DNA of 63,909 nt, the filler included, from Bigelowiella natans CCMP2755 (taxonomy: Eukaryota > Protista > Cercozoa): NCBI GenBank assembly GCA_000320545.1. It is 8 parts of 8 records of this genome, joined end to end, with 100 filler letters (N's around TTAATTAATTAA, not from the genome) between each part and the next. Parts side by side here need not be neighbours in the genome. Positions count along the whole stretch, not along the records: positions 45,502 to 53,329 come from ADNK01000581.1; 7 more parts are not named here. The stretch is one strand, 5' to 3'. Shown here piece after piece: positions 11,364 through 51,485 of the stretch (the first letter of the stretch is position 1; each line of letters opens with the position of its first letter). The translations under genes were made by a program, and so were the position numbers. The notes under the pieces were generated by a model. It did no database searches. It saw only the letters and a list, made by a program, of their open reading frames with translations, and was not told the origin of the DNA.

Positions 11364-12632
11364 ACTGCCTTTCTTTCTCTTTAACTTCTCGTAGTGTTCG
11401 TTGAGCTGCCTGATCGTCATCCTGGGTCGTCCTTCTTTCCTGTCTCTGCAGTCTTTAGCGGTGTGTTTCCCTTTACGTGAGCAGTATCCGCAACGTCGGT
11501 TACCTTCCCTGTCCTTGTACCAGTCTCGCTGCGGCTTAATAGCGTTAATGTTTCCTATGCCAGGTACCTTAGGGCTGGTAAACTTGCGGTCCTGCTCCTG
11601 CTCGCGTAGGGATATAGCCTGCACTGCTGCCTCCATCGTGGTGTAGCCTTTCTCCGTAACGTAAGTGGATTCCTTTATCTTTAACTTGAACTCTTCAAAC
11701 CTTGCCTGATCATCACCTGTGTTGTAATTAAAATCATGTAGTTCGTCGATCATATCCTGGAAGCGCGTGGCAAAGTCTCTAACAGGTTCTCTCTCATGCT
11801 GCATCATTGCTCTGTATTTTCTAATAGCCTGGGGTAGGGAGTTAGCATCCTGTTCATTTACAAAAGCCTTCATTATCGCCTCAACGTCTCGTAGCCCACT
11901 AACTGTAGTGTGTATTTTCTCTAGCTGCCTGATCCGGGTCCTGCCTGTCTCGTAAAGGTCCATGGCTTGCTTTATTATAGCTAGCCATTTGAGCTTGTCG
12001 TTTTCGGTGGGGTTAGGGGTAAAGTCGCAGAGTATACTCCTAGCGTTCTTCCACCACCTCCTTGCCTCACCTCTTTTCCCGTTGTATTTCGTTATCATAA
12101 CCGGTGCTGTTTTAACAGACATGAACTGGGTGTTCCGCTGTACCGGCTGCTGCTGCTTGACGGTGCTCTGGGTCGTCCCCCGCGAGGCGCCCAGACCCCC
12201 GTCGTTCCTAAACAAAGCTGCCCACTCTGGAGGTAAGTCTGCTTCGTAATCCATGATGTCCTGCATGATAGCTGCCCAAACATCATGTGTCTGATACTTG
12301 TATTCTATCGATACTTTCAGTTTGGCGTAGTTGCTCGCCCTGGGTCGCAAGGCTCGTAATGCCATTACGACCTTCTTGCTTTCGGCGGCCACGTCCTCGT
12401 CGTCCGCCTCGTAGAAGTTCTCCAGTGCCTCTGCTGCCGCCTCGTAGAAGTTCTCCAGTGCCTCTGCTGCTGCATCTGCTTTCTTAATCCCGGGTGCTGG
12501 TCCCGGCGGTGCCTGTGGAGGTGTTCCTCCTCCTTCCTTAGCGTCCGTATCGCCCTTCCTTTCCTGTTTCTGCTCGTGCCCTTGCACGGCCTGCGAGCCA
12601 AAGTCCTGCTGTTCTTCTAGCTGCTGTGACAT
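11364..12632 (-). CDS. gag: Retrotransposon Gag
   Basis: KYNGK...RRWW, a major-homology-like QHEREPVRDFATRF segment, and zinc knuckle CGYCSRKGKHTAKDC (CX2CX5HX4C). AAAEALENFYE is tandemly duplicated (33 bp). Confidence 0.88.
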
Positions 12633-12997: not shown

Positions 12998-13519
12998 TGC
13001 TGTGCGCATGCTAGCATGCTAGCATGGCACCTTCTGGCCTTTGCTAGCTTGCGAGCAGCGCGGGCTTCGAGATGCAGCATTGGTGCGCGAAGTCTGATTG
13101 AAGTTGTGGCACACGTTGCAAGTCGAGTCGATGCATCCACAGATGCAAGTGCTAGAAGTGCCCTGTCGTTTCGCCGTGCGATGCATGCCATTCTAGCATT
13201 TGTGCATGCCAGCTAGAATGCTAGAATGCTGGAATGCTAGAATGGTGCACAGTTGAAGATGTAGACAGTCTGGCTAGCTGGATTCTTCTGGTGTTGCATG
13301 ACGACGCGTAGCAGCATGCTCCATTTTGCGCGGCTCCGATCGTTGCATTTTGTCTATATCTAGTTTATTGTCACAACGTACGCCATGATCACCGATCAGC
13401 GTTTTCAAATTGTTCGCCAACGTGTCTCGACCAGCACACATGCTATGCCCACACACATGACTTCAATCATGTTTATCAATGCTGCTGAGACACTTCATAT
13501 ATCATGGTGCATACATGAA

Positions 13520-17300: not shown

Positions 17301-18170
17301 TGACGTAACGAACGTACTCGCGGGGCTCCGAACGCTTACTAGCAAATGACGACGTATATCTTAGTGTGTACATCACATCATTGTTGCGATAAAGTAAGCG
17401 CATTCATCAGTGAAATGAAGACGAAGTGCTGAAGATAGTTCAATAATCTGTCGATGTATTGGTTGTGTACCTATGTATGAGACGGATGTAATGAATCAGT
17501 TAAATATGTTCAATTGTCATCCTAACATAGCTGTGCAAAGCCGCGACTACAGCGCTTAAACTGTACTCGTTTGTTTCTGCTATGATGTCAAGCATGTAGA
17601 ATGGATCGCACATATGAGACGGATGTAATGAAATGTTTAAATTGTTTCAATGGTCATCCTAATGTAGCACATATGTCTCCATCTAGCTATAGCTGTGCGC
17701 ACAAAGTTGAAACTGTGCGTGTGACATCGATCTGCGTACGCATTACAACTAATCCTCGTTAGCTGTAAATGTAGACAAAACATCACATCATGCACATTTG
17801 ACACTCCATGCGACGTTGCGATGTCTAGCACAAGATGGCCATGTGCATGCTAGCTAGCATGTTATCAAAAAACTTCATTGCATCCGTCTCGCGTTTGCAC
17901 ACGCACGGTCGCAATTGCGGCCCGGACCAAAACAGACATCTAGTCACAATGGAGCAGCTTCAAGGTCACCAATGTGTGAGAAAATTCATCTCAGCGCGCT
18001 GCCATCGTGTTCATGACAAAACTTGTTGTTTCGAGAACTGCAAGCAAGCACGATTCTTAGCAGTTGCAGCATGCTGCATGGCTACATGCATTGCAAGTGC
18101 GCGCTCGCTACATGAGGAAGCACTAGAGCAGCCGGAATGCTAATGAATCGAGGTTTAGATGACCCATGGC

Positions 18171-18931
18171 CTAGTGATTGCGTCTGGACCGTTTGCTCGG
18201 TTCTTTTCTCGAGCTTGAAGACGAGCTCGAGTTTCGCTTTTTGTTTCTTTCCGTTGTCTCTTGAACCTCTTCTTGCCTTTGAAGAATTGTTTCAAGTTGT
18301 CCCAAGGGCTTGTCATTTTCTTTGCTATAGGGATTGCGAGCATGGTAAACTCCTGCATTATTCCATGCGATATGAGAACGTTTGTCAAAATATGAGTTGA
18401 AAGCATCCGACCTCCTGCACGAAGTTCGTCGATTCCATTGTACGTCCATATAGTTGGCACTCCCTTCTCTCTGATGTTCGAGAGGAATAGTAAGACGAAA
18501 GTTTCAGTTTCAAAATGATAGTTCCTCAGATGACTGCTAGAATCAAGTACCTGTTATTCTTTCGTATTGTTTCTGCCTCTTTTAGATTTTTGGCCACCAA
18601 ATTCATGCCTTAGTTCCATATTAGCACACCGCATAAAGTTAGAAACCATCTGGGAAAATTTGTAGCGAGTGTAAGCAGTCCCTACCACCGCATCTTGTGT
18701 GTATAAAATGCCTGACGACGGACGGCTCTGGCCCTTCCTGAGGTAAGAGAAATCGTGCTCAGTGTGAGGATATACTAGAAAGAATCAAGGTTTCACAGGG
18801 GAAAAGGACCTGCGCGTGACTGGATGATCTTTCTTTGTTCTGAAAGGAGGAAGGATTGAAAGGAGGAAGGATTAACAGGTATTTAGATTGAGAAGTGGTT
18901 GAGAAATCATTGTAACTGTCACCTTTCGCTC

Positions 18932-18970
<39 letters not shown>

Positions 18971-20362
18971 CTTTGTCATCTCAGATTCGGTGTCATGTGC
19001 TGATGCCCTGGCAGGAAGACCACCTCGAGAACGTGTATATAATCCGACACGCATGGCTGTCCCTGAATTTTAGACTCTACCCGATATCTGGGAGCCACCT
19101 TCTGATACGTACTTACACAACAAGACGCATCAAAAAGTCTCATTTCCTCAGATCAGTGCTGCGTAATTCGACAAACGATAAGACTCGAGTAATGAGCTAC
19201 CTTGTATCCCACAACACGCCTCTCCCGGATTTCCTTACCCACTTGCCCATTTTGGAGTAAAGCCCGTCCACAACGACATAATTCAAGATTTTTTTCAGCC
19301 GAATCGACAGCATCTTATGCAGCTTTGTCTTCTGATCAGCACTAAGGTCGCTTGCACGGGGAACGCGAAATGTAGCGTAGTCATTGAGGACTCCAAGGTA
19401 TCCGTCGCAGAAATTTCTGAGGAGAAACAATGAGAATGAGTCTAGTAGTGCTTAGGGCAGAGTAAAGATAGCAACAATAGTAAGGACTCCACCCCACTCC
19501 ACCCCACTCCATCCCAACGTTTGTCGCACAGGGTTGACTCTATTCGGGTCTTTCGGTCCGGTCCGACGTTTCTCCAGACAAATTGAGGAGGCGGGGGAAC
19601 AGGGCGCGGTGGAACTATTTTACCAGCAAATCTTCTCAGTATATATCTCAACTACATGCAAATTGGAATCTTTCAGAGCTTCGAAGGTCCGTCATCATTC
19701 AGGATTTGAAAATATCGACTGCTCTTCTTACTTTCTAAATTGTGGGCTGTGTGTACATAGCCAAAGGAATTAGATCAAGCTACACTCTGTTACCTTTTAT
19801 ATTGACACGTCTTTCTTTTCCGCTATAAGTCACCTTCCCCTTGAAGGTAGACTCCAACAAATCGCGCTCAACCGTGATTCTAGACGTCCCATCTTCCATT
19901 TCTTCCGTTTTAGATTTCCCACGTTGATAGTTGAAGGTCACCGTCCCGCGCTCATCAGAACACACCTCACCACAGACACAGCGAGCCTCAATATTCACAT
20001 TAAGTAAACGTTTACCGTCCTGACTAAGGTCGAGCTGTTCGGGATCCACATGCAGCTTCGTGAACGAATGTTCTACCCTCAGCTTCAGTTTGTTAGATGA
20101 GTCGAAGAATATCTCGTAATCTCCCGGGTTAAGACGTTTCATGTCTACCTTGAGCTTCCCTTTTACTACTTCTAAAGTTTGTTTATTGCTGCCCTCTCTC
20201 ATCAGTTTTGCACTTTTCTTTGCGATTGGTTTTAATTGATTTTCGTATTTGTCTTCTAACGTGAGCTGTTTTGTTCGGGTACCAGCTGATGCAAAGACGT
20301 AAATACGGTACTTGTCAATGCATACGTTATCGCATAGAAGGGAGAGATGAGAGAAAGAAAGA

Positions 20363-20412
<50 letters not shown>

Positions 20413-23400
20413 CACAGAAAATACAAATTTTGCAAAAGTAGGGGTTATTGCTAAAACAACTCTGCTCTGTGAAACCTATGTGCATGCTCTCCATACGATA
20501 ATCTCTCTTCTTTTCTCAAAACTGGAAAGCATATACACCAGCGTAGCTTAGATTTTTAAAAATGAGTGTTGTGACCACTGCAATTCCAAGAGATTTTATC
20601 ATCATCAATTTTCCACTTAAAGGGATCTCCCCGTTCCAAATTGATCTCCTTTTCGTGCGAAAAAGGCTCAACCCCATCAAAGTTGGCTTCGACTCTTACA
20701 AGGTATTTGTCATCTTTAAGATCTCCTGGTATTTTCTTTGGTATTTGAAGATTGTACGAGTAGTCTTGCTTCAGGTCGATTTTCTTCCCGTTTATGTACA
20801 CAGTAAGCCTCCCATCGTTCATCTGATCGTCCTGTGAACGTCGACGTTTTCTCCTTCGAACGAGTTCGTGTTTAATGTTGCTGTCCTTGTAAACTACAAA
20901 TTGAATCTTTTTAGGGTCTTCCCCAACCTTAACCTTGTCCGGCGCTTTTATTTCGAGGTATACGGGCTCGTTGTGCGCTTTCACGTTCATGCGGAACTCT
21001 GACTTCTTCTTACCCCACTTCAATTCCACCCTCGCGCGTAACTATGTAATCACAAGAAGAAGAATCAATATGCAATCTCAAGTCAGATTGGTATATCATC
21101 AATAGATTAGTATTGTGAATGTCAGCATTGTTCTCTTGCTGCATTCGCATTGAGTCAACAAGTTACCTTGCCCGTTTTCTCCTTCTTGTCGTCCAAGAAA
21201 TATTCTTCGCCTAGCTCTAGATGGGTTTCTTCAACTATACCAAGCCGTCCATTTTCTCTCTCCAAGGTCTTGGGTGCTTCAAAAATGTTTTTCCACTCGC
21301 CTTTTGATTTAACTTTCATCATGACCGTCACCTTCTCGTCTGGTAACTCCGTGGTAGTGTAACCATATTTATCGCAAAATTTGCCTTGCGCAATAACATC
21401 GTTGATGAAAGTTTCAATATTAGTACTGTCGCTCTTGTCAAGAAGCTTGTACGTGTTCCGAATCGCTTTGATATCGTCTGGGGGGATCCATTTGTCCGGA
21501 ACTCCGGGACTTATCTTAAATCGAAATGATGAGCCTTCTTCCAGGGAAGAGTGAGAAACGGTTGCCTCTATTTCATCCTCCCAATCCTTCGAAAGTTCTC
21601 CGTTCCCTTTATCTTTGGGAGAAATCTTGAGGATTTCGAAGCAAAACCTATATTGATCCTCTCGCGAACGCGAAAGCTTCGAAGTTTTAATCTTTAATCC
21701 GGCGTCCTTTTCAGTCTTTACAGATATGATTTCCGAAAAGATCTGTTTGAAAAGGGATTGAAAGCAAAAAAGTGAGAAGGATGAATTGGTTTTTCCAGCT
21801 AAATTCCTTTCGCAGTTGAAGCCCTTAAAAGGCGAAAGTCAAGTCATGCAAAAGCAGAAAAAGAGGCCAAACACCAAACATTTGACCTCGAAACATTTGA
21901 CCTCGAAATTCATGTCCTTAAAAAAGATACGATTGCCACGTATGTCCTGAACCTCGAATTCAAATCTGCTCCATTCAGGGTTACTTCCTAGACGAGCTTC
22001 GAGGTCGTCGTCGAATTCCACGAGCACTATTTTATAAGGGTCTCCAGGCTCCACTGTGAAATGTGCTTCGTATAGAAGCGGTTTCCAGGGTTTCTCATGT
22101 ACTTCTTTGTCCACGAAAAACTGAGCTGTGTGCGGCCCTGGGTCCAACTCTTTGAGATTCAGAGAATAACCTTTGCTTGGATATGAAAAATTGCGTAAAA
22201 ACTTCTTGTCGTTCCAGAGTTTGAAGTCTACTCTTTTTGAAGCGATTTCTTTGCCGTCTACGCCTATAACCTTTGGCTTTATGCTTGTGAAGACTCCCTT
22301 ATCGCTTCCAATCTTCCACGTTTTTTTCTCTCTGCAACGACGACAACGATCGAACGGTTCCCAAGAAAAAGATTCTGATTTTGGGTCGTCTGCCTTCTCT
22401 ACTTTTTCCAGTTCTGGGTCTACTTTTGTATCGATACCTTCGAACTTAATACCATCAGGCCAGAATTTTTTTTTTTTTAATCTTTGAATAAGTTTTGGAA
22501 CTTTTTCCGGATCTATCTTGGTTTTAATCTTAAAAAAAGGAACAGAGGTCTTTTCTTGCCTTACATCGTATCTTTCAGGTTTCGGCAAGAGAATCACATT
22601 GACATCAACTTGTGACGCCAAATATTGTCGATCTTTTTTGATTAAATGTTCAGATTTCACAACTACATGTGTGATTTCACCCTTCCTTCCCTTGTTAAAA
22701 GAGACGCAGTCGCCTTTTTTGAAATCGCTCACCTTTTTCTTTTCGCTAAGTTTGGTAGCTTTGTTGAAGGAGTATTCCTCCTTATCTGGCCCCAGATTTT
22801 GAAAAGGGAGGGATATCTGCATATCACACCTACTGCTTACCAATTGGATGAAGTCTTTTATTTTGCTTTGAAGGGTACTGCGTGTAGATCTAGGCTTATC
22901 TAAATCTTTTTCTTTTTCGATTTTTCTTCCGGTCTTTGTGTTGGACAACATCTCTGGTATCGTCTGATCCCTGATCTTTCCTAAATTGAGTTTGTTCCGA
23001 TGTGGCCTGAAGTCCTCCCCAGTAAAGAGGATGAACTGAAGTCGATCTTTTTTCAGCGGTTCTACCTGTCTTGGCCAGAAATGGGAAATACTCTTAGCAC
23101 TACAGGGTGCATTAATGAGCCTGCGTCCTTGCCAGTGCCATTCCACAGCCGGAAGGCTCCTGCCGCTAAAATCTTCCACAGTCAAACCTTCTAAAATTTC
23201 CCCACCAGTCCCATTATCTCTGAGCCATTTTTTGACTAGAGCAGGCGAACTCGGAAATTCATCATCTTCAGAGAACTCTTTGCTTTCGAATTCGACATTG
23301 CAGTCCCCTCCAACACCCTTTTCCTTAACGCATATCCATTTCTTCACACGCTTTCTCCCGGTGTTTTCCTTGCGAATCTTAATCTTCACACTCTCGTCGT

Positions 23401-23788
23401 TGACATTGATATATACACTATCCAGATGATTCTCAGGCTGATGATTTTCATGCTCACCCTCACTCTCAGTCTCTTCGTCTTCAATCTTATTTTCCTCGTC
23501 GTCTCTACCAGCATTATTGCCTCGATCGTTTAAGCGCTGTTCATTCTCATCAGAACGAAGTTTATAATACCCTTCAAACGGCCTCAAATCCGGTTCATCT
23601 TTAGCAGTCACATTCAAGCCTTCCGTAACGTAACTAGGATCCATCTCTTTCCCGTTTTTAAATGGAAGATATAGTGCCATACCCAAGATTTGTTTACCGT
23701 CCAATTCAAATTGAAAATACATTTCCCCAGCCGATCGCTCGTGGCAAAGCCAAAGATGGGACTTCTCATTTCTTAAGCTGTTTTATAC

Positions 23789-23826
<38 letters not shown>

Positions 23827-26272
23827 TGATTAGGAATAGCGTCATTGACGAAATGAATGGGTTTTACTACTACCTGTGGGATTTTTTGTTTAGATCGATA
23901 ACTTCAATGTCGAAGTCTTTAAATTTCCATGTTTCTATATCGAAGAAGCAGTTGTTGGGATACTTATCGATATCATCTTCGGGTTTTTCATCGGGCAGGA
24001 ACTTTTTCATATGTTTTTCGTTATTGGCATGCAGATAGTAATGGTATGTGTTCGCAAGCTGCCGACAAAGTTGAGGGATGTAATTCTGCAGGTATTTCTG
24101 GAGATTTGGCTTAATGTCGTAGAGAACTACTCTTGTAAATTCCTTTTCAATCTTTTCCTCTTCGAGTAACTCCTTTGCGAGCTCAGATTCCCAATACTCC
24201 TTGTAGCAAGGGTCTATTATGTCAAATTTTACCGTTTCTTCCTTGCCGGCTTGGCGCTTGATTTGCCCCAGTTCCATTCTTTGGTCATTTTTACTTTGCC
24301 TCAATCTAATGAGATCGTCAGAGCAGCTCACACATGTCACCTGATATATCATGAAGTACAAGTTTGGACCTACTACTCACAATAACTTGAAACCAATCTC
24401 CAAATCCCATGCTATTATATCCGCTTGATTGACCTCGTTGTTGCCTCTAATTCTGGAATCTACAATTCCTCCCCTCGCCACCAAAAAAATCGCATCTTTT
24501 GCCCCTTCTCCGAAGTAGTTCAATCTTCCATCGACAAAGAAAAATGATCGAGTGCCTACAGAAAGATTGTGTTCGATTAGCTCGAAAAAACACGGATTCA
24601 AATTAAAATTTCACTTCACTTATGTCGCTTTTGCTTCTTGCGCCCTTGTCTTTCTGACTATATCTTAGCATCCAGTATAGTCGAAGCTGATCTGCACTCA
24701 TTCCTGCACCGATGTTAATTATGGAAGCAGAGTACATATATCTTCCTTGCGCCTCACTGTAGTGCCTGTGAAAGCGGATTTTAATGCTAGCTTTCTCACT
24801 TTTGCTTTCAAGAGTGGGTCTTATAGCGTTGTCGATCAGTTCCATAAATGCAATGAGAAGTTTCTGAAAATCTAGAACATCATCGTAGCGCGACTGGCGA
24901 TAAATAGATACTCCAGTAGAAACGTTGATTGTTGATTGAGACATTTCATTCTGTATCGCATTGCTTCCACTTTGGTTTCTTACCCATGAACGAGCTTCAG
25001 GGTAGGCTTCAATTTTCTCTCCGTCTCTAAGATGGTCGTAGGTTTCTCGAGTAAGTTCGAGTCCCTTGTATTCCAGGGTTATAAGGGGTCGTGAATCGAG
25101 ATTTACATCCCAATGACCGCCGATCCAATTTCGCATGTCGTCGTAATTCATATAATTGGTCCGACATCTCGAAACCTTGCCATCCTTGATTTTCCCGCAC
25201 CAATTAATGCAGATTTCGTGCGAACGAGCAGTTAATTTGCTATATTGACTGATTTCCTCCCGAGAATCAACCCTTTCCCCATTGTTGAATAAGTCAATAC
25301 GAGCGTACCGTTGATGTAATCGTTGATGTAATCCGAGCCTTCTAGATTTCTTGATCCTAGATTTCTTGATCCATTCAAGCACTTTTTCCTTCATTTTGTT
25401 GAGAGAATCAATCAGAAATTTCTCTTTAATCTTATGTTTATCCTCAAATTGAAATTCAACGGTCACGAGGTTGCTTCCGGTGGTTTCTCGTAGCATGTCG
25501 AACTTGCCTTCTACTTCTTTCCAGTCAATTATGCTGAAATCGTGACACTCATGAACTGCTTTAAAGAAGTGTCTTTTTTGCTTATCATCTAAGAAGTGTC
25601 TTTTTTTATTATTATATTTCTTTCTAATAAATTCTTCAAACTTCTTTAAGTCGTTTTCCATCTTTTCCTTTACTTCATGGATTGGCAATACCTATTCAAA
25701 ACATAGGCAGGTTCGACACTGTTATTAAATACTTTTTCAAAAAGTCACTCCACCACTAGATGAAAAAAAACTTGACTTATTTGGTGAGGTATGTTAACGC
25801 TTACAATGGTGTTAATTTGCTCAAGATGTTCCTCCTTCAGTGTGTTCTGTACCATCCATGCTTTCAGTACCCTCCAGATATAGTAGATTATAATTGAGTC
25901 TTCCATCGTGAAATACTTTATTTCCGATCTCACACGAGGAACCATGAAATATGCAATGGAAGGGGCTAGCTCCCGATAATGAGCGGGACGCTCACTAAAG
26001 AATTTTGGCTGGACGCGTTTGTATTGCAGGACGCACTGAGTCAATTTATCAATATCTATACTTCCTTGTTGTTTCACGATGAATGATGATGCAGGTTCTA
26101 AAATCCTTACAACATCTTCGACGAATTTTTTTTTATTCTCCCCTTCAGGGACCGCCTCACATATTTGCAAAATACATTTTGCTCCATAATGTTTTTCTAG
26201 GAACCGGAATTCTTGAGGCACTTCGGACTTCGACCCGGATGAGTCCGAGGCATGCTTCGATGGGCGGCTCAT
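18171..26272 (-). CDS. SMCHD1: SMCHD1-like protein (UBL, GHKL ATPase, transducer, Ig-like linker, SMC hinge), multi-exon, about 2000 aa
   Basis: AFMELIDNAI; SIINIGAGMSADQL; LNYFGEGAKDAIF; FTRVVLYDIKP...QNYIPQLCRQLANTYHYYLH; EWHWQGRRLI...DRLQFILFTGEDFRPHRNKL; repeated PGxP motifs in the linker; hinge GYLGVLNDYA...LNYVVVD and NLKEAETIRK...PTIWTYNGIDELRAGG. All are in SMCHD1 order. Confidence 0.85.
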
Positions 26273-26437
26273 TAATTAAACTGAAGTTTCGAACCCTTCC
26301 AGCAGAACCAAGCCTGGATTAAATTTTATGAGTCTTGGGGCCGGCGTGAAGCTGTACTCGAACGTGGACTTCCTTAGCCTTTACTAGCCCTGAGAGAGTT
26401 CGCCAACGACCACCCTTTGGGGCATCCACGCAGAGCA

Positions 26438-28220
26438 ATGACTGACGAGAAATTGGTGTTACAAAGTCGAATCCATTGGTCATTTCTGCCGTTTTTACTC
26501 GTCGAGTCTATGTCGTAGGGACAAAACGCCATTGGAATCACTACTATCAGCATTCTAAAGCAGCGACTACGACGTTATGCCTCGATATTTCATTGGGACA
26601 TCTGTCTGCGGCCCCCGTAAGGTGGGTTAGAGAGCACGATGAGGAAGAGAAAGTACGCGCGTGGAATCGTCGCTGTGCAGAGCAAAATAGGCAAACAAGG
26701 CCAGAAACTCGTTCCCTGGTTCGAAAAATTTGATAAATTCCGAGATGAAGCAGCGAAGACGTTTGGTCTTAGGGCGGATAAGGCAAAACTCTTCAAAGAC
26801 AATAGGTTCATAAGAAAGTGAATCTTTAGACGCCGTTCCCACACTTTCCGAACATGTGTATCATCATTCATTCTTTCTCCATTGCTCGCCCATAGCTGAA
26901 TCTTCGATTTCAATTTTAGGACTGCCCCATTAAATGAGGAAGACTGGGAGGAAGTAAATATTGAGAATGATACCTTCATAATCACAGGGGAGAGGGTTAC
27001 AGATTCCAAGGAATACCTTTCTGGCAAGAGACTTGAGATTAAGGATGGTTCGGAAGTAATAAGCATCCCTCTAAACTTGAAATACTCCATCAGTGTAGAT
27101 ATGACTAGAACAGCCTATGGCTGGGATTCATGGTTTAAAGACGAAGCGAAATATTTTGAAGATCCAATCGAAGTCAAGCTAGAGAAGTTAAGGGATCACA
27201 GAAGCTGGATTGAAAATTTCTTTAAACCTCTTGAGAAACACAAAGCAATTCTTACCCTTGAGACCCGGTGCGGTAAACAACTGTATGCTTCCTTGAAGTT
27301 TACTTATAATCGTAATATTCCAGGCCGACGGAATAATATCCCAGCCTTAGAGATTTACGAGCCCCAACCCGGTTTATTTAAAGAAGTAGAACGACGAATT
27401 CGTGAGGAAAGAGATAAGCGATTTTCAAAAGCCTTTGAAAACAGGAAGCTGCGAGTGCTACTTGATTTGGACCATACACTTATATCGACCGGGACATACG
27501 ATCCGAAGACATACGATCCGAAGATTGTAGAGAAATTAAAGCATCAAAAATACATGGAGTGCTATGAAACAGATCCAAAAAATCCAACACGGCTCACCTT
27601 TCTACGACCAGAACTTATTCAGTACATGAAGAAATTAAAGGATATTGCTGAGCTGACTGTTGTCTCTGCTGGAAAGTATACATACGTGGAACGCATTTGC
27701 AAGAAGATAGAAAAAGAATGTGGAATAAAAAAGCTGTTCGAAAAGATCATTTCAGTTTGGTCGACAATTGGGAAAGAATCCGATGTTGGGACAAAAGATA
27801 TACGACGAGTTCTTACATATTTTTCGTTTCCAGGCATGAAGGATTCGGATGTTAATGACTATATGGTAAGAACAATCCTTACAATATCCATATTCTCACT
27901 TCAATTTTAATTTGACGTTATCCCTCTTTACCTCCCTGTGTACACAGACTGCAGGCCTCATAATTTTAGATGATTTGGATGTCTGGACTGGGTCAGACTT
28001 AGTAAAGAATTTCTATAAAATAGATCCATTCCATGTGAGAATTAACCCTTCCAAGTCAGTTGACGTGCAACTGAAGCAAATTCGGATGGATGATAAACTC
28101 CAAGTTATTTATGGAAGAATTAGCAAGTATCATGAGAAATTCTTCGAGGGTATGGGAAAGCAGCCAGTATTGAAATATCTCAAAAAAGGCCCATTAACAT
28201 GGTACAACTTCAAATGTTGA
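26438..28220 (+). CDS. FCP1/SCP-family HAD phosphatase with an N-terminal ubiquitin-like domain, multi-exon
   Basis: LRVLLDLDHTLIS (DxDxT), FLRPELIQYM, ELTVVSAGKYTYVERI, TKDIRRV, LIILDDLDVW. Upstream exons splice in frame; the start ATG at 26438 is tentative. Confidence 0.8.
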
Positions 28221-30179
28221 GTAAGATTCTCCAGTTAGTCGAATAATATAGTAGGTGTGAACTATCTAGATGTGTGCTGCTTATTTAACGTTAGTGCTGA
28301 ATTATAAATTATGAGATTAATGTCGCACATCCAGCTCTAGACACAGCGGCATTCGGTCATCACAGTGATCAAAGCGTGGAACACATGCTGCTTGAACGCA
28401 ACCTCTAGAAATGTCAACACTGTTATTGAAATTCCGAAACACCCCATAGTAGGCTTCAATAAATTACATGTAGTTTTCTTGATCGGTGGCACTATGCACC
28501 GCATTCAGTTCTAGAAATGTTGTCGCTCGTTATTGGCATCAATGCTGGCATGTTAGACGGATGCGATGAAGATGCCATACTTTTTCACTAGTAACCCTAG
28601 CTAATGTAGCTCTAGAGCTATGCAAGAATGTGTCTGATCTAGCTAGCTATGGGTGTGCACGTCGAACGCAACGCTGCGCATACAGGTCGAGCAGATATCA
28701 TCATGCTCGCCAACGCGCATGCAGGCCTTGCATTTACCGCAATGATCTATGTTACGCAAACCATCACTTATTGGCGGTGCAGCTGGCATGTAGCTGCGTC
28801 GTAGGAGTTATGCATGCTTACCTACCTCGCGACGGAGCACCTAGCTGTCGTTCGATCGAACATGATATATAATACGCTGTGCGCGACGCGTTATTGCATG
28901 ATGCGCGCGCGCCACATCACCCGGAGCCACGCCGAGCGGCTACCGCTAGCTAGCATGCGATGCTAATTAAGCAAAGGCACCATGCTAGCATGTATCACTC
29001 TAGCTGCACGTGGGGTTTTCCCCATTTTTTTCTCAAGTTCTATATAAAGCGCTAACAAACGAGTAGTCAAAGAAAGGCAGCGGCATCATTTTGCGCATAC
29101 ATCGATGCTATGACAAATAACTCATGAATCCTTGAGGCGGTCGTATTTTGGTGTTACACATAGCACATAGAGAATGAATCAAAGCAACAACGACGATGCA
29201 ATGCATACACACAACCACGACATAACAATCGAAGCAAAAGCGGCAGCTGCTACAAGTCTAGAAATCAAGACTGCACACGACGATGCTAGCTAGCTATGCT
29301 GCGAGGTAAGACGCCTGCATGTAGCGAACAGGAGCGTTTTTGCATGATCTACCATACTGGCCGAGGTGCTTCGGTGTGTGTGTGTGTGTGCGTGTGTGTT
29401 TACTTTTTTAATTGGCAGATACTGTTTCGACACAGCGAGCGCAGAGGACAATAATACCGCAGAAGAACATGCTCAATTCATTAATAATGATTATAGAAAT
29501 AAAACTTGAATATTAGCACGACGCGGAGGCGTAGTGAAATGCTATAAAATGTGAAATTACGAACAGAGCCAAATCCTTCATTGAATAGCATGTATGAGAA
29601 AAAATGCGACTCGTATCACTTTACATACATATTCTTCACGCTTATGTTGTGAATACAAAATATGTTTTTATATTTAATGTTGAAAACAGGCGCGTTGCAT
29701 TTCTCACATATTTAAACATAGCATTTTAAGGGCTTCATCATTCTCCTAACGAACATAGCTGTCAGATCAGATGCCCCTCTTAAGTATCTTCTCTCGCCCT
29801 CCTGCTTCCCTCCGCACTGTGCCAGCACCAATTTTATCCGCGCCATATCCAAGAATTACATAATAGAGCAGTTAACATTGCAGGCCGGATCCTAGAGTGT
29901 GAGGCGGTGGGGGGGAGGAAGGGGGGGAGGAGGGTATCATAACGATGATGAATGGTAGGATCATCCCTAGAATGTCGTGTTCAGGTTAATAAGAAAGTCA
30001 ACGAAGATAACCCACATACACACACAGTCATTCCATGTGGCAGTGCATTCGCACGACTCCTCCTCCACCCCCCCCCCCCNNNNNNNNNNNNNNNNNNNNN
30101 NNNNNNNNNNNNNNNNNNNNNNNTTAATTAATTAANNNNNNNNNNNNNNNNNNNNNNNNNNNNNNNNNNNNNNNNNNNN

Positions 30180-30213: not shown

Positions 30214-31563
30214 GGTCCTGACTTGTGCTGATCCTGGTGCTCACCTCATCCCTCACCCCAACTCTGGTCCAAACTCTTCACCAGAAACGGTGACTCTGAC
30301 CCTCATCCCAGCCCTGACCCAATGCCCTCACCACTTTCCGTGACTTTGGCCCTCACTTTTGCCCTGAGAAAAGCCCTGGTCGATTTTGGCGACCAGTTTT
30401 CCTCACTTTGGCCCTCACTTCGACCGTCACCATGGTCGTCACTTTGGTCGTGGCCCAGGAGAACACCCTGACCCCACATGGCCATGTGAACATTGTCAAA
30501 CTTTGGACATTTGCCTTTTCATTGTCCACCTTTGTGACTGTTTTTTGTCACCCTGGGAATTGTCATTTTGTGTTCACACACACATTCACACAATTGCGTG
30601 TCGCAGGGCAGGCGCAGTGGCGCACAGGCTGGCAGGGCTGGTCAAAGATGACTCTCAGTGGAGAGTTTGAACTCTGATTGCTGCATGATCAAATTTTTGT
30701 CAGAAATCACTGGCACAAGTGTCGCACCAATCCAACGGCCAACCTTGGGGTTCGAGAATGCTTCCAGAACCATCGGGAAGACTGAGGCAGGTGCCAACTG
30801 CGTGACGTGGGTTGGGTTCCGACTGGATTCCGATGTGTCAGGTTCTGTCATTTGTTTGAGGAAGGAAGGCCTGCTTCGAGGTGATCGGCCTCGACAGGAC
30901 AGCCACAGCGAGCGTGCAAAAGAGTTTGGACAGGTTTTTGCTGGTTGTTTGCGTGCTGTGCGTGCCCTTTGCACACTGGCACATCAAGTTGTCCACATGA
31001 TGATTGATGCTCACGGCCGTTGACTGCACTGCGTTGGCAGTGCACAAGAGAAAATGCACACGTGCCTTCTGGTCTGTCTCAACGTCATCGCTGTCCATGC
31101 ATTGTTGAATGATGTCCGCATCACGTGAAAAATGTCACGCATGCCGCCAGCGTCAAGCATCGTGTCACATGTGAAACTGCGTTTTGGGCTGTGTCTGCAG
31201 TTGGCGTTAGGAACACCACACCAGTGATGTGCAAACAAGATTGCAGCATGTTTCGTCATTAACTTCAAAAAATCATCTCTTGCCAATAAGGCTGATGTCA
31301 TCATTATTCACTTGGATGGTGTTGGGCGTAGGCTCACTATCTCAGCAGCTTTCTCAATGTACTTAGCCTTCAACAATCCTGCATGTTGTGTGTCACACAA
31401 AGTAAGGAATAGTGAATTAAATCATTCATCAAAGGTCGTAAAAGGACAATTAGGCGCTTCTGCTGGCCTTTGTTGATAATCGTTATATTTCTCTACAAGC
31501 TCAACATGAATGAGAATCTTCCTCTCCACACATCATAGTTCTTCTATAGTAGCGATAGTCGTT

Positions 31564-45501: not shown

Positions 45502-48181
45502 CCATGGAACGTGAGACATGTGCTAGCTTAAGAAACCTACTTACCCTTTCTTCCGCCTGGCGCACAACTTCATCCGCCACAACCGAGTAATAAAGAGGAT
45601 CCAGACACCTACACCAAGGATAGATGACGTTATTGAACACGTCATAGGATACAAATACTACTCTTCCCTAGATAAAAATGAATCATACATGCAGACACCC
45701 ATCCACAAAACCTCCCGCCCCATTACCGCGTTCTCCAGCAGGCACAGGAAGTGGCACTTCGTCGTATTCCCTTACGGCCTAAGCATATCAGGGGATGCGT
45801 TCAGTAGTCAGAACTACAGGGCATACACACATGATGGGATGGCGTCTGTGTTGTGGGTGTTTGTGTTTGTGTATGTGGATGATGACATAATATGTACCAA
45901 CACAGTCGTCGCTCAGATCTTCCTCCTGGAAAATATATTTATTAGGTTTGCACACTTCGGTTTTACTATTAGACTGCAGAAGTGTACATTCCTAGCTACA
46001 AGAATCAAGTGGTGTGGATATTACCTGGAGCAAGGCCGCATCACCCCAAACCCCGAGAAAGTAGCAGCACTACAGCAAGCCCCTAAACCTAAGAATGCAA
46101 AGGAGTTAAAGTCATTCTTGCAGACTGCAGCTTGGATACTACGTAGGTTCTCCCCTACCTACGCTAGGACTGCAGCTGCTTTTACTACTGCTTACCGGAA
46201 GGAGAACTCTGTAGGCCTCAGCTTCGCTAAGGTGTGGGCCAAGGCTGGCCTTGATGCCCACTTCGATAACCTAATAAAGTTATGCAGCAACACCCTATTG
46301 AATGCTAAGCTAGACACTACTAGACCAGCTACCCTATGGACAGACTGGTCTAAGCTAGGTATGGCTGCTGTACTTACCCAAGACCAGCAGATCATACGGG
46401 TGTGGGGCAGGGCCTGCACAGCAGCTGAGGCCAAGTACAGCCCTACAAAAGGAGAGTATAAAGCCATGACTGAGGCGCAGAGGAAACTAAGATACTACCT
46501 GCTGTCGGTGCCCAGCTTCACCTTAATGACTGACCACAAGCCCCTCCTAGGCATCGACCGCAAGCTCGAAGCGCCTAACGATGAGTATGCAGCTATGAGG
46601 GCGGACACGGAAGAGTTTAGGGACAAGAGGACAGTGGTCTACGCACCAGGAGACAAGCAGCTTGCTGACTATTTCAGCAGGCTGTTCGAAAAGAAAGTCC
46701 CTACCCAGGTCACCCCTATGGTTAACGCGATTACCTTCGAGGACGGCGACTTCCTGCCTGAGCCAGAGGAGCTCCAGCACCTTCAAGAACACCTGGATAA
46801 ATACAAACACAAGCATGAGGTACTTAGTGATAGGATATATGTATACACTAATAATGTTAGGCGTACCTACGTGCCACGGCGGACCAGGGGAGCCCTTCTC
46901 TTTACCGCCCATGGACCTGCACACGTAGGAGAAAACCATATCACTGCTCTACTCTACCATTACTACTGGCCCTACAAGCTAAAAGAGATAAGGACATACC
47001 TGCGTGGCTGCAGGTGCTCCAGCTTGAAGGCGGCAGGCGTCGCCACCAAGGAGTCCAGCAAGAGCCGTGCATCTAAGAAAATCAAAGCAAGGAACTTCTT
47101 AGATATCGTGCAAATTGATGTTTATAAGTACGATGGCTATCACTACCTTACCTTCGTTGATGTGGCCACTGGAAAGTGCTGGGTTAAAAAGATTATCAAG
47201 GTCAACGTTGCTAAGAAGAACAAAGGCTTATATAAGCAGAGGCTTACTAACTGCTACCGTACCTGGGAGTCTGAGCTCCAGGCTATCCCTGATGAAGTTA
47301 GCATAAACAAGATACCAAAGAAGTTACATGTGGATAATGAGACCTCTCTTCTACAGCTACCACACCCTAATATTGATGCCTCACCTGTATACTATGCCCA
47401 GTCCAACTCCAAGGTAGAGCGACTCCACCGCACCTTGGCCAACCTAAGCAGGATAAATAGCACCACACCAGACAAGATACAAGGGTTAGTAAACGACACC
47501 TTCACGTCTGGGGGAGGTATCAAGGATAAGGAGAGGGAAGAAGGCGACGACAACGACGACGATACCGAGAGCGAAGACGAGAAGGTCCCGTACGATGGCC
47601 GAGTTCTAAAGGAAGGACAGTATGTTAGGGCCAAGGTAAATCTGAGATCGAGAAATAAACAAGACCCCTTCTGGGGTGGCGTTGCAAAGGTTACCGAGAG
47701 GAAGGGGAGGAAGCAGTACTACATCTATGATGGGAACAGGGTCACCTTGCGCCACATCAGTCACCTAAAGAATTATGATATCGGTGAGAAGCTCCTAGAG
47801 GATGTTAAAGTAAACCCTACTGTGTGGGAGCGAGCAATGCCTTGTTTAGGACCCCGACCTAAGTTCGATGTGGAATATGGAAACAATAAGGTCAGGGTGA
47901 ACGACGATTGGCGCATGAAGATTGTCTATCTAGGCTACCCTGGATTACGAAATATGGAGAGGGTAGCTATGAAAATAAAGGACGGAAAATATCAGCTACT
48001 CTACCTAGCTGTTCCCGACTTACCCTTTGAGCACTGGTATAAGGTCCTGGGGGACCTTGATGCAGAGGGCTGGTATGGACACGAACCTAAGGACGAAGGT
48101 GAGTTCTGGGTAAGCGACAAAGGAGATAAGGTTAGAGAGGAATCTATTACCTGGTGGTTGGTGAAGTTCCGAAAGCGATGA
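45502..48181 (+). CDS. pol: Pol polyprotein: RT, RNase H, integrase, SH3-like module and an extra C-terminal Dam-methylase-like domain
   Basis: TPRIDD...YYSSLD, PYGL, YVDD (RT); LWTDWSKLGMAAVL...TDHKPL (RNase H); HGPAH...CRC, IVQID, HVDNE, SNSKVERLHRTL (integrase); DPFWGG. The frame extends upstream of 45689, with an apparent +1 nt near 45529 close to the contig edge. Confidence 0.93.
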
Positions 48182-48232
48182 AGGTCTAAGGGAATAAGGA
48201 AGGAAGGAAGGAGCAACGTGACTTGGGGGAGG

Positions 48233-48558
48233 TGTAGCGCGTACCACTACGCGGGCACAAGTCACGTGCGACAACAAAGGGGTTGTCGCGGATATAGAAT
48301 ATAGATAACGTAGATATTAATACAGCATAGGCACGTGGGTTCCGGCGGGACTCATGGCAGCACACCGGAAGTGTGCTGCCCCACGTGCGGCGGCATTCGC
48401 GAAAGCTTCGCGAATGATTACGCAGTGCACGATTTAATAAAAATATAATCTTTAATAAAAATAAACACAACTCTTCAAAAGGAAGCAAACGTGCCTTTCC
48501 CCCCCCCTGCCTACTTGTGCACGTAGCGCCTCGGCCTGTGAACACCTTACGCGCAACA
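48233..48558 (+). repeat. 3' LTR (326 bp)
   Basis: TGTAGCGCGTA...TACGCGCAACA; reverse complement of 12672-12997. Confidence 0.95.
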
Positions 48559-49556
48559 ACGCTGGCACCCAGGGCACGTCTCCAAAGTGTTGCACGACAC
48601 TTGCAACTTGCGAAAAGCAGTCCAATGGTGCCTCGAACTGGAAACAACGAGGATTCACTGGGGTGGAAAGCATGACAAGCAGCATGACAAAAAATGGCGT
48701 GCATGGCCAATGGCAGCCGTCTGATGAGGGTGGGGAAAAGAACGACGCAGCGCATCCATCCTGAACCAGAAACTTCCCCGAATTTCGATCGCGCGACATC
48801 CATCATCTCCATGGATCTCCATGGATCTCCATCTCATTGAATCTCTGCAACTGTGTCGAAGACGAACTGAATTTCACTTGGTGCGACAAGCCGTAGTGAC
48901 CGTTCGATGCGGTGACTGTCATTGACAAACAGTGCTCCTGGTCCATTTTTGGCGTAGTTGACTGTGGAGCACGCTCGGATGATTGATGAGTTCTTGGGAG
49001 GTACTACACGTAGTCATTACAGGAGTACATGCAGCAGCCATTAGTGCACATGCTGAAAGGAACAATTGGTTCACAGTGTTCTGCAAGTTCACAAAAAATA
49101 AGAGAAAGAACAACAACGTAGAAGCACAACTCTTCACGGAAAGAAGAGCACGTGCGGTACCCACCACTGCACGTATCGGCCAGCGCGACATACGACTGAG
49201 TTGTCCAGTGTCCAAAATAGTTCCATTTGCATGCAATTCTGGCTTGTGTTCGAGCTAGCTTCAACGTGCTATTTTTCCTACTCACTTGCCATCGAAGAAG
49301 TGTTCGGTGAAGAACAAGGACAAAAGCAGGGGAACGCCAAGCTTTTTGAGCTCTTTTAGAGATATCTACAATCAAAAGGAGGCCTATAAGCGCTCAACCT
49401 CGCGTCAAAGTTCCACTGGGAGCAAGTGAAAAGCAGCAGGCAGGCAAGAGGGCGGTCCGAGAGCAAGTGCGTAGGCACGGTGATAAGAAACCAAACCACG
49501 AAACTTCCCCCAAAACCACTCGTTATCCTCCCCCTTTCGCTCTCCCCATTTTCTCA

Positions 49557-50965
49557 ATGAGAGCATCAAATTCGCCAAGAATTCCTTGTAATAACGCAGA
49601 CGACATTACTATGAGAGTGAGGTTTAAATACGAAAACCAGAGCATGAAGGACAAGGAAAGAGCGGAGGATGGTAACATCTGGCACGAATTTGACTTTCCG
49701 GATGGGCCTGAGTGTGAAGAAACAAGCATATTTTGGAACGTTGATCCCCTTCTCAACAAACCTAGTGAGACTGGCAGTGTTGAACCTCCAGGAATGGCGA
49801 ATGACAGCTCTCCTACCTCCTCCCTTCCCACCCGTGATTTTGACAAGATAACCCTGGAAGAGACAGAAACCTGCATATCACGACATTTCCGTTTCCATCC
49901 TGAAAAACTACTAAATGATGAATCACATGATCATATTTCACCTAATCACTTGTCACCTTTATATGCGAAAGAAGAGGAGAAAATAGAAGTGGACCTTGAC
50001 AATAATCCCAGCATCATTCACCATCCTGTTCGCTGCGAGGGTGGAGAGCAGCAAGCAAGTGTAAGCCAAATACGCAGGCATCTGCAAACAGATGACCCAG
50101 AGTCTCACTTGCTGGAAGGCACTGTCGCTGAGTATACCCGTGGAAAAAGTGAAAAAAAGGAGGAACTGAGATGGTCGTATACGGACTATCGATCTCGAGA
50201 TTATAATTTTAATAACGATGGTGGTGACAACATCAGGAGCAAGATATCATCAAGCGATACTACTAGTGCAACTATAGAATTACGTACCCCTCCTTCTTCG
50301 TCCCGTATTCCCTCTTCCCCGAAGCGAAAATTACTTGCTGAAGAATCTTGCTCGAAAAATCTGCCTAGCGACCAAAATATGGACTCGCCAAAGAAAAAGC
50401 GCAGAAATTGCAGTGTTGAGTTGATAGCAGAGATTTCCCCTTTCTCTTCGACTATAGCCCTTCCTGTAGTTTCACGCGGAAGCTGCCGCAAGCCTAAGTC
50501 GAACTCTGCTGCATTTCGAGCAAAGGTATCATTAGCTAATTCAACCGCGAGTGGAACTACAAAGAGGATAGCAGTAGTAGTATCACGATCATCCTTCTGC
50601 GATGTCGTGAAAAGAGAAGAACAGAAATTACATTTTATTGGCAAAAATGAAGCAGCAATACTTCACCCAGTGCGCAAGATGTCTTATCGTCCGTCGTCAT
50701 TTTCGCCGAAGAAATGCAACAGGCTAAGTTTGAGAGAAGCAGATGAAGAATGTGGCTTGAAGTTGACTGCTTCCTTCTCCTCCTCGCCTCGGTTACCGCC
50801 AAAGCAGAATCAACTTGAATGCTGGCCCAAGACCTCAAATGCCAACAATTGGGAGCTTTCCAAGTAAGAAATTGCGAAACAAATGTGTAGAGTTTAGATA
50901 TATTAAGATGGCAATAGTCTTCTCCAAACTTCGGCCTCATCACTGAAAGTGCAAAAGCTTATAGC

Positions 50966-51014
<49 letters not shown>

Positions 51015-51485
51015 GTCAGATTTCGTCGGCGTAGCCAACGGCGTGTAGCCCAAGCTGCTAGAGAGAAAGTGCGTAAAATACTGTGCTCAGAAGATGACAA
51101 ACTCGAGAAATTTCCTTCGGACGAGGAGGAAAATGAATTTTTGGGTGATGAAACTATTTCCATAGATTCAACTTCTAGCAACGTCTCGTCGCTTGTTTTA
51201 GCACGCAAAAAACCCTCAGTGAACAACTTTGGATTCATCGTTCTCACGAAGGAAACGCTAAGAAAGAAGGGGATCGTACGAGGGGGATTTGGCCGAGCCT
51301 TTGAGTGCCAATATTGCCATAAGGTCTGTACGCAGAGGAGTAACATAATCGCACATGTGCGTGTTCATACTGGTGAAAAGCCATTTAAATGTGTCAAATG
51401 CTACAAAGCATTTTCACAAAAAAGCAATTTAAAGCGTCATATCAAGACTCATAATTTGCTCTATAGAGAGTTGTACAATCACTAG
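49557..51485 (+). CDS. C2H2 zinc-finger transcription factor, two exons
   Basis: Long low-complexity exon 1; intron ~50863-51019 joins in frame; FECQYCHKVCTQRSNIIAHVRVH-TGEKPF-KCVKCYKAFSQKSNLKRHIKTH. Confidence 0.85.

Follow-up and report, generated by a model that had tools for sequence, protein, structure and literature searches.

A TpA-free, CpA/TpG-enriched flank beside a young Ty3/gypsy-type LTR in Bigelowiella natans, a likely scar of TpA-directed hypermutation

The window, the whole stretch of DNA that was analysed (63,909 nucleotides from Bigelowiella natans CCMP2755, assembly GCA_000320545.1), consists of eight unrelated contigs joined by N-linkers, and distances across the linkers are meaningless. 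A pol gene, an LTR and the flank that follows them all lie on the contig at 45502–53329. The pol ORF (45527–48181, plus strand, 884 aa), assigned from Pfam and composition, encodes reverse transcriptase, RNase H and the zinc-binding region of an integrase. Its RVT_1 and RT_RNaseH matches are above the Pfam cut-off; the near-identical proteins P0134 and P0146 have a weak, sub-cut-off Integrase_H2C2 match, and fuller near-identical proteins have weak protease and integrase matches in Ty3/gypsy order, also below the cut-off. A polypurine tract (48225–48232, plus strand) immediately precedes a 326-bp 3' LTR with TG...CA termini (48233–48558, plus strand). A 5' LTR of the same family, 100% identical to the 3' LTR, lies on the minus strand of another contig (12672–12997), with gag (11367–12632) after it on the same contig and a candidate primer-binding-like site, starting TGG, 5 nt after the LTR. 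The flanks of the two LTRs share no target-site duplication, and the LTRs are therefore probably separate insertions. Gag followed by protease–RT–RNase H–integrase, TG...CA LTRs and a polypurine tract are traits that the element has in common with Ty3/gypsy (Metaviridae) retrotransposons; it differs in being only 22–30% identical to the listed relatives outside B. natans, and in having a spliced antisense strand. Two short palindromes are present within the LTR (48356–48380 and 48394–48416).

A search with the pol protein returned JGI Bigna1 models as the best 18 of 238 matches (97–100% identity), the other 102 listed being 22–30% identical. EukProt accessions carry the name Bigelowiella natans, and an unrelated ORF of the window is 99% identical to an MMETSP protein; no pol relatives were found in viral contigs. 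Four further members of the element's cluster (P0127, P0129, P0131 and P0134) are attributed to Alexandrium andersonii and Karenia brevis; three of them align at 97–100%, and the attributions probably reflect transcriptome-library cross-contamination. In run X12 the depth of single contigs inside pol exceeded that of the flank contig 720–830-fold, which is a rough sign and not a count. The family looks high-copy, with hundreds of near-identical copies and a recent burst; no description of such a burst of this element was found in the literature, as far as the parts available go.

Both pol (rho TpA 1.17) and the 3' LTR (24 TpA, rho 1.23) are uneroded, although the LTR has a 91-bp TA-free stretch of its own. 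Alignment of 48 of the 49 family proteins to the window gave 27,049 identical residues and seven isolated substitutions, a count that omits mismatches at alignment ends; none of the seven was of the TpA type (0.28 expected without bias). The description of the LTR as young and TA-rich in the earlier note is supported by these counts. Diverged single-copy pieces of the element are also present (9–17% different), with 12 diverged pieces overall spanning 2–17%. In metagenome contigs the LTR-end pattern was found at one locus, L001, a spliced 5'-LTR/gag piece without flank, and in viral contigs at none. L001 differs from the window at four bases, three of them TA versus TG/CA (unpolarised, p ~0.03).

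The junction between LTR and flank was examined in assembled contigs. In runs X1 and X12, contig joints and loose ends fall at 48558. The LTR sequence that continues into the flank within one contig (contig 22, run X15; 31-letter bridging rule) amounts to just 23 bases, one TpA included. Given hundreds of near-identical copies, the inner letters of the local LTR may be an assembly average. Run X1 also contains LTR end-to-start joints (48558/48559 to 48232/48233) with spacers of only 25 and 37 letters, indicating that copies of the element cluster or nest; the TpAs in these spacers are also in TAG/CTA context. Nesting beside older LTRs is a general trait of LTR retrotransposons. The antisense strand of the element is spliced at many GT-AG introns in gag and pol (45606–48151; 11463–12118). 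CT..AC skips account for 12 of the 15 joints shown, in run X15 only, with 11 more joints beyond those shown; contigs give no strand, and on the antisense strand all four skips of L001 have GT..AG ends. No long antisense ORF is present in L001, the longest being 109 aa.

Immediately beyond the 3' LTR lies a non-coding, unstranded stretch of 335 bp (48559–48893) in which dinucleotide counts revealed no TA against 18.4 expected (rho(TpA) 0.0). CA occurs 33 times (25.5 expected) and TG 29 times (16.5 expected), together 62 against 42.0 (rho(CA+TG) 1.48), so that the ~20 surplus CA+TG balance the ~18 lost TA; CG is close to expectation (20 against 22.8). TpA positions leap from 48548, within the LTR, to 48894, leaving a TA-free run of 346 bp, and the edge of the TpA-free stretch is the end of the LTR. 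The TpA-free flank with a sharp boundary against the LTR, as first noted by eye, thus stands.

That this stretch arose by chance or from low complexity, in a genome mildly depleted of TpA, is most improbable. The TA-free outcome was obtained in 0 of 100,000 mononucleotide shuffles of 48550–48893 (mean 18.5, minimum 5). Markov simulations of the window's contigs, 60 at each of orders 1, 3 and 5 (180 in all), gave a longest TA-free run of 201–215 bp, none attaining the observed 346 bp. The rho(TpA) of contigs within the window spans 0.60–0.99, TA-free runs of ~215–220 bp occur elsewhere, and with a local background of 0.6 a crude every-position correction gives ~0.9 such runs per window. Since this correction permits about one run, the case against chance leans also on the matching gain of CA and TG; moreover, a tandem repeat makes up only 28 of the 335 bp, and a process with this outcome is documented in B. 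natans.

Depth beyond ~48740 is single-copy. No letter differences were found across 48571–50900 in three of three DNA runs, in contigs that drop rare variants, and the TpAs that remain there accordingly give no indication of still changing. Downstream lies a host gene (49350–51485, plus strand) that is expressed and encodes C2H2 zinc fingers (Pfam zf-C2H2); it begins near 49427 and has an intron at 50864–51019, an X15 contig covering 49427–50863 and resuming at 51020. The RNA-like contig 22 of run X15 spans 48536–48850, almost exactly the TpA-free part. With an expressed gene 530–870 bp downstream and an RNA-like contig over it, the stretch could be a regulatory or RNA element under selection to avoid TpA, a reading that we consider barely plausible. 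An Rfam scan of the flank gave no match near threshold, tRNA and promoter scans (the latter with a bacterial model) gave nothing above chance, six frames read by eye contained no credible protein, and a 215-aa minus-strand ORF spanning the flank has no Pfam match. The same signature is, in addition, found at unrelated patches.

The flank had been labelled host DNA in the earlier note, a label that probably does not fit its content. A short dispersed repeat (48567–48630, unstranded) at its start is marked by loose contig ends, two to seven contigs leaving the window at each of 48567, 48581, 48606 and 48621 in runs X1 and X12. At one site, read as TG in the window, its mixed consensus (agreement 0.54–0.66) gives TA or CA. 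At the other end, a likely older, related LTR remnant (~48850–49191, plus strand), recognised by alignment to the young LTR, is partly eroded (12 TpA, rho TpA 0.53, rho CA+TG 1.48). Its global alignment score of 34 was matched by 0 of 1000 dinucleotide shuffles, it was the best of 2370 window slices against the LTR (43, the next being 33), and a 34-bp local match was equalled in 1 of 1000 shuffles. We call it only a likely older LTR because its bounds were picked after inspection and because a first, looser local alignment of the LTR to the flanks and the subtelomere was not significant; no target-site duplication was seen around it. Rather than plain host DNA, the flank probably represents old mobile sequence, with ~220 bp between the repeat and the remnant to which no origin could be assigned.

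Within this part lies an unstranded array (48797–48832) of CATCCATC and 2.8 copies of ATCTCCATGG, a candidate eroded microsatellite, with ATCTCCATGG at 48805–48832 and CATCCATC at 48753 and 48797. An origin of these repeats from TA-bearing microsatellites had been proposed. The CA/TG repeats are indeed present; the ATCTCTATAG ancestor itself is found nowhere in the window, where shorter TA-bearing relatives of it do occur. The tandem ATCTCCATGG copies share one CA/TG pattern. Independent erosion would yield such sharing about 1 time in 8, and erosion followed by duplication explains it no less well than the opposite order. Microsatellite ancestry of the flank repeats is therefore plausible but unproven.

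Hypermutation of TpA to TpG/CpA in integrated NCLDV and virophage DNA of B. natans was described by Mettrop et al. (bioRxiv 10.64898/2026.01.13.699255). In that work silent foreign DNA mutates ~1000 times faster, almost only at TpA; two integrated viral regions mutate at ~6x10^-7 per site per generation, and 230 of 231 mutations in hypermutable regions were A->G/T->C, all on TpA. The authors list 124 TpA-poor, CpA/TpG-rich clusters genome-wide, report an enrichment of TE domains in TpA-poor CDS, and propose adenine deamination by an ADAT2-like enzyme as a hypothesis, without an assay. The main text of 10.64898/2026.01.13.699255 contains no mention of LTR, retrotranspos-, telomer-, flank, CTAG or antisense, and no other paper on the TpA signature or on this element was found in the partly available literature. 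A single heterochromatin state with H3K9me3 and H3K27me3 covers TEs and repressed genes in B. natans, according to the accessible part of 10.1101/2025.03.17.643675.

The flank agrees with this hypermutation in species, in the dinucleotide lost and in the products gained, and differs from the published clusters in being sub-kilobase, non-coding, fully erased and beside an uneroded high-copy LTR element. Its rho TpA, 0.0 over 335 bp and 0.40 over 1 kb, passes the mark for strong depletion (<=0.43), but as a cluster in the sense of 10.64898/2026.01.13.699255 it is below the cut-offs, with a rho(CA+TG) of 1.48 (<1.52) and a 1-kb window at 0.40/1.31 (rho TpA/rho CA+TG). With TpA hypermutation of foreign DNA on record for B. 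natans, the most likely reading of the flank is a sub-kilobase footprint of that known process. The process is one already reported in B. natans, and the flank adds an instance and not a system.

Repeat-induced point mutation of fungi (RIP) is likewise a hypermutation by transitions at a specific dinucleotide, and it leaves its scars on repeats and mobile DNA; it changes C to T at CpA, yields TpA and is triggered by duplication. The flank shows the opposite direction, with TpA absent and CpA enriched, and in contrast to RIP, hundreds of near-identical copies of the B. natans element are untouched (0 of 7 signature substitutions; identical LTRs). A RIP product was rejected on both grounds. UV TA-photoproducts were set aside as a cause, since according to the part of the literature available they give other changes.

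The same footprint could come from other chemistry, if an error-prone Y-family polymerase (pol eta-like) copied such patches during repair. A polymerase of this kind has an A->G hotspot at TA and would give the same TpA->TpG/CpA products; an error-prone polymerase would, however, be expected to hit ApA as well and to add transversions. ApA in the flank 48559–48893 is not depleted (rho 1.28), and in 10.64898/2026.01.13.699255 the transitions (230 of 231) all hit TpA. Although ADAT2 is the only candidate named there, and without an assay, we judge a polymerase to be very unlikely.

The earlier note had suggested checking other flanks of this LTR family, of which one is available in the window (12998–13350, unstranded). 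Dinucleotide counts and shuffles showed that this second flank is also eroded and CA/TG-rich. All 11 of its surviving TpAs are in TAG/CTA context (9 CTAG, 2 GTAG), and 6 CTAG and 2 GTAG remain when a tandem array is masked; 0 of 50,000 shuffles of 12998–13350 lacked TpA outside that context (mean 10.2). A third, partly eroded patch lies at 17863–18346 (unstranded, rho TpA 0.34). It was found through the absence of TpA outside TAG/CTA, and its context is not an independent test. Of four copies of a short repeat at 17476–17893 and 28549–28580, the two outside the patch have TA, one inside has CA and one has CG. A telomere-adjacent, unstranded stretch of 994 bp on another contig (30214–31207) has no TA against 54.5 expected and a rho(CA+TG) of 1.70, with CpG also low (0.59). 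Compared with one another, the eroded patches showed no similarity.

The telomere-adjacent stretch adjoins a CCCTAA telomere array and opens with degenerate telomere-like repeats. Telomere-variant hexamers (CCCTGA 3, CCCCAA 1, CCCTCA 5) were rejected as evidence of erosion, the commonest not being a TpA transition; such hexamers are generic variants. The proposal that erosion is a general process was correct in that it is not confined to the telomere, but it is patchy and targeted, and a single one of 59 1-kb windows combines rho(TpA)<=0.43 with rho(CA+TG)>=1.4.

The longest runs without TpA outside TAG/CTA are those of the subtelomere (1080 bp), of 17863–18346 (483 bp) and of the two LTR flanks (454 and 370 bp), both of which begin at the LTR edge. 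This result is suggestive only, since the criterion was derived from viewing the second flank. When 229 windows were binned by CA+TG enrichment alone, with 12998–13350 excluded, the top bin had an observed/expected ratio of 0.49 for unprotected TpA and 0.66 for TpA in TAG context, the corresponding ratios of the low bins being 0.81 and 0.73 (Fisher p=0.016 without correction for composition). Sparing of TAG was not seen at two other patch edges (6/13 and 7/17; background 40%), and fully erased patches have lost CTAG as well. The survival of TAG/CTA, the second eroded LTR flank and the spliced antisense RNA come from few sites and partly post-hoc tests, and are suggestive.

Erosion of the neighbourhood might instead be the work of the element itself, or of an LTR that occupied the spot before it, with read-through or antisense RNA marking the unique DNA alongside; the LTR would then look intact because of assembly collapse, gene conversion or a recent replacement. 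Erosion peaks at the LTR edge in both flanks and fades over 350–600 bp; only 1.6% of positions have a comparable run ahead (350 bp without TpA outside TAG/CTA). The RNA-like contig over 48536–48850 and the abundant spliced antisense RNA also point this way. Against it, the last TpA of the LTR (48548) is intact in the contig that runs into the flank, near-identical copies carry no TpA-type changes, and the patches at 17863–18346 and 30214–31207 have no adjoining LTR; the run criterion was, again, set after the second flank had been viewed, and the contigs give no strand. We regard erosion triggered by the element as unlikely.

Taken together, the flank is probably a finished scar of the B. natans TpA->TpG/CpA hypermutation on old mobile DNA, beside which the young element inserted later. 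Decayed repeats and an older LTR, silenced as one patch, would have been hypermutated until no TpA was left, presumably by deamination of adenine to inosine, the hypothesis of 10.64898/2026.01.13.699255. By arithmetic from the numbers in that work, full erasure of TpA would take ~1.9x10^5 generations and the regain of one TpA ~5x10^7. TAG may be a poorer substrate, in which case CTAG would be erased last. The young Ty3/gypsy-type element would then have inserted beside the erased patch, and, being transcribed, may be too recent for the process or shielded from it. As one of the 24 LTR TpAs changes per ~2,300 generations, the element should be very recent, or shielded, or the patch no longer active. 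Full silence of the flank fits poorly with the RNA-like contig that covers 48536–48850. Copy number alone seems not to trigger erosion, since a high-copy young family has no TpA-type change among its seven substitutions; unlike RIP, copy number alone is thus suggested not to be the trigger, a very high-copy element being untouched. The scar is also suggested to extend to subtelomeres and to small patches of non-coding DNA, both of which escape cluster scans at 1 kb. Should the survival of TAG/CTA be real, it would offer an inexpensive way to tell which enzyme acts, and hundreds of dated insertions would permit tests of targeting, spreading and escape.

A more far-reaching reading, which we hold to be possible but doubtful, is that the mutator spares TAG and erases CTAG last, and that the LTR burst homes to erased patches or makes them while itself escaping. 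If so, the spliced antisense RNA would be a possible guide or shield, the TAG/CTAG rule would be a fingerprint of the enzyme, and each LTR flank would be a dated test site for the targeting and spreading of the defence.

Elsewhere in the window, an ORF for a NIF-like phosphatase (26900–27910) has nearest Atlas clusters that are 86–91% viral, and is possibly virus-derived, or a host gene. Near it are long ORFs at 19780–26275 with a weak SMCHD1-like match.
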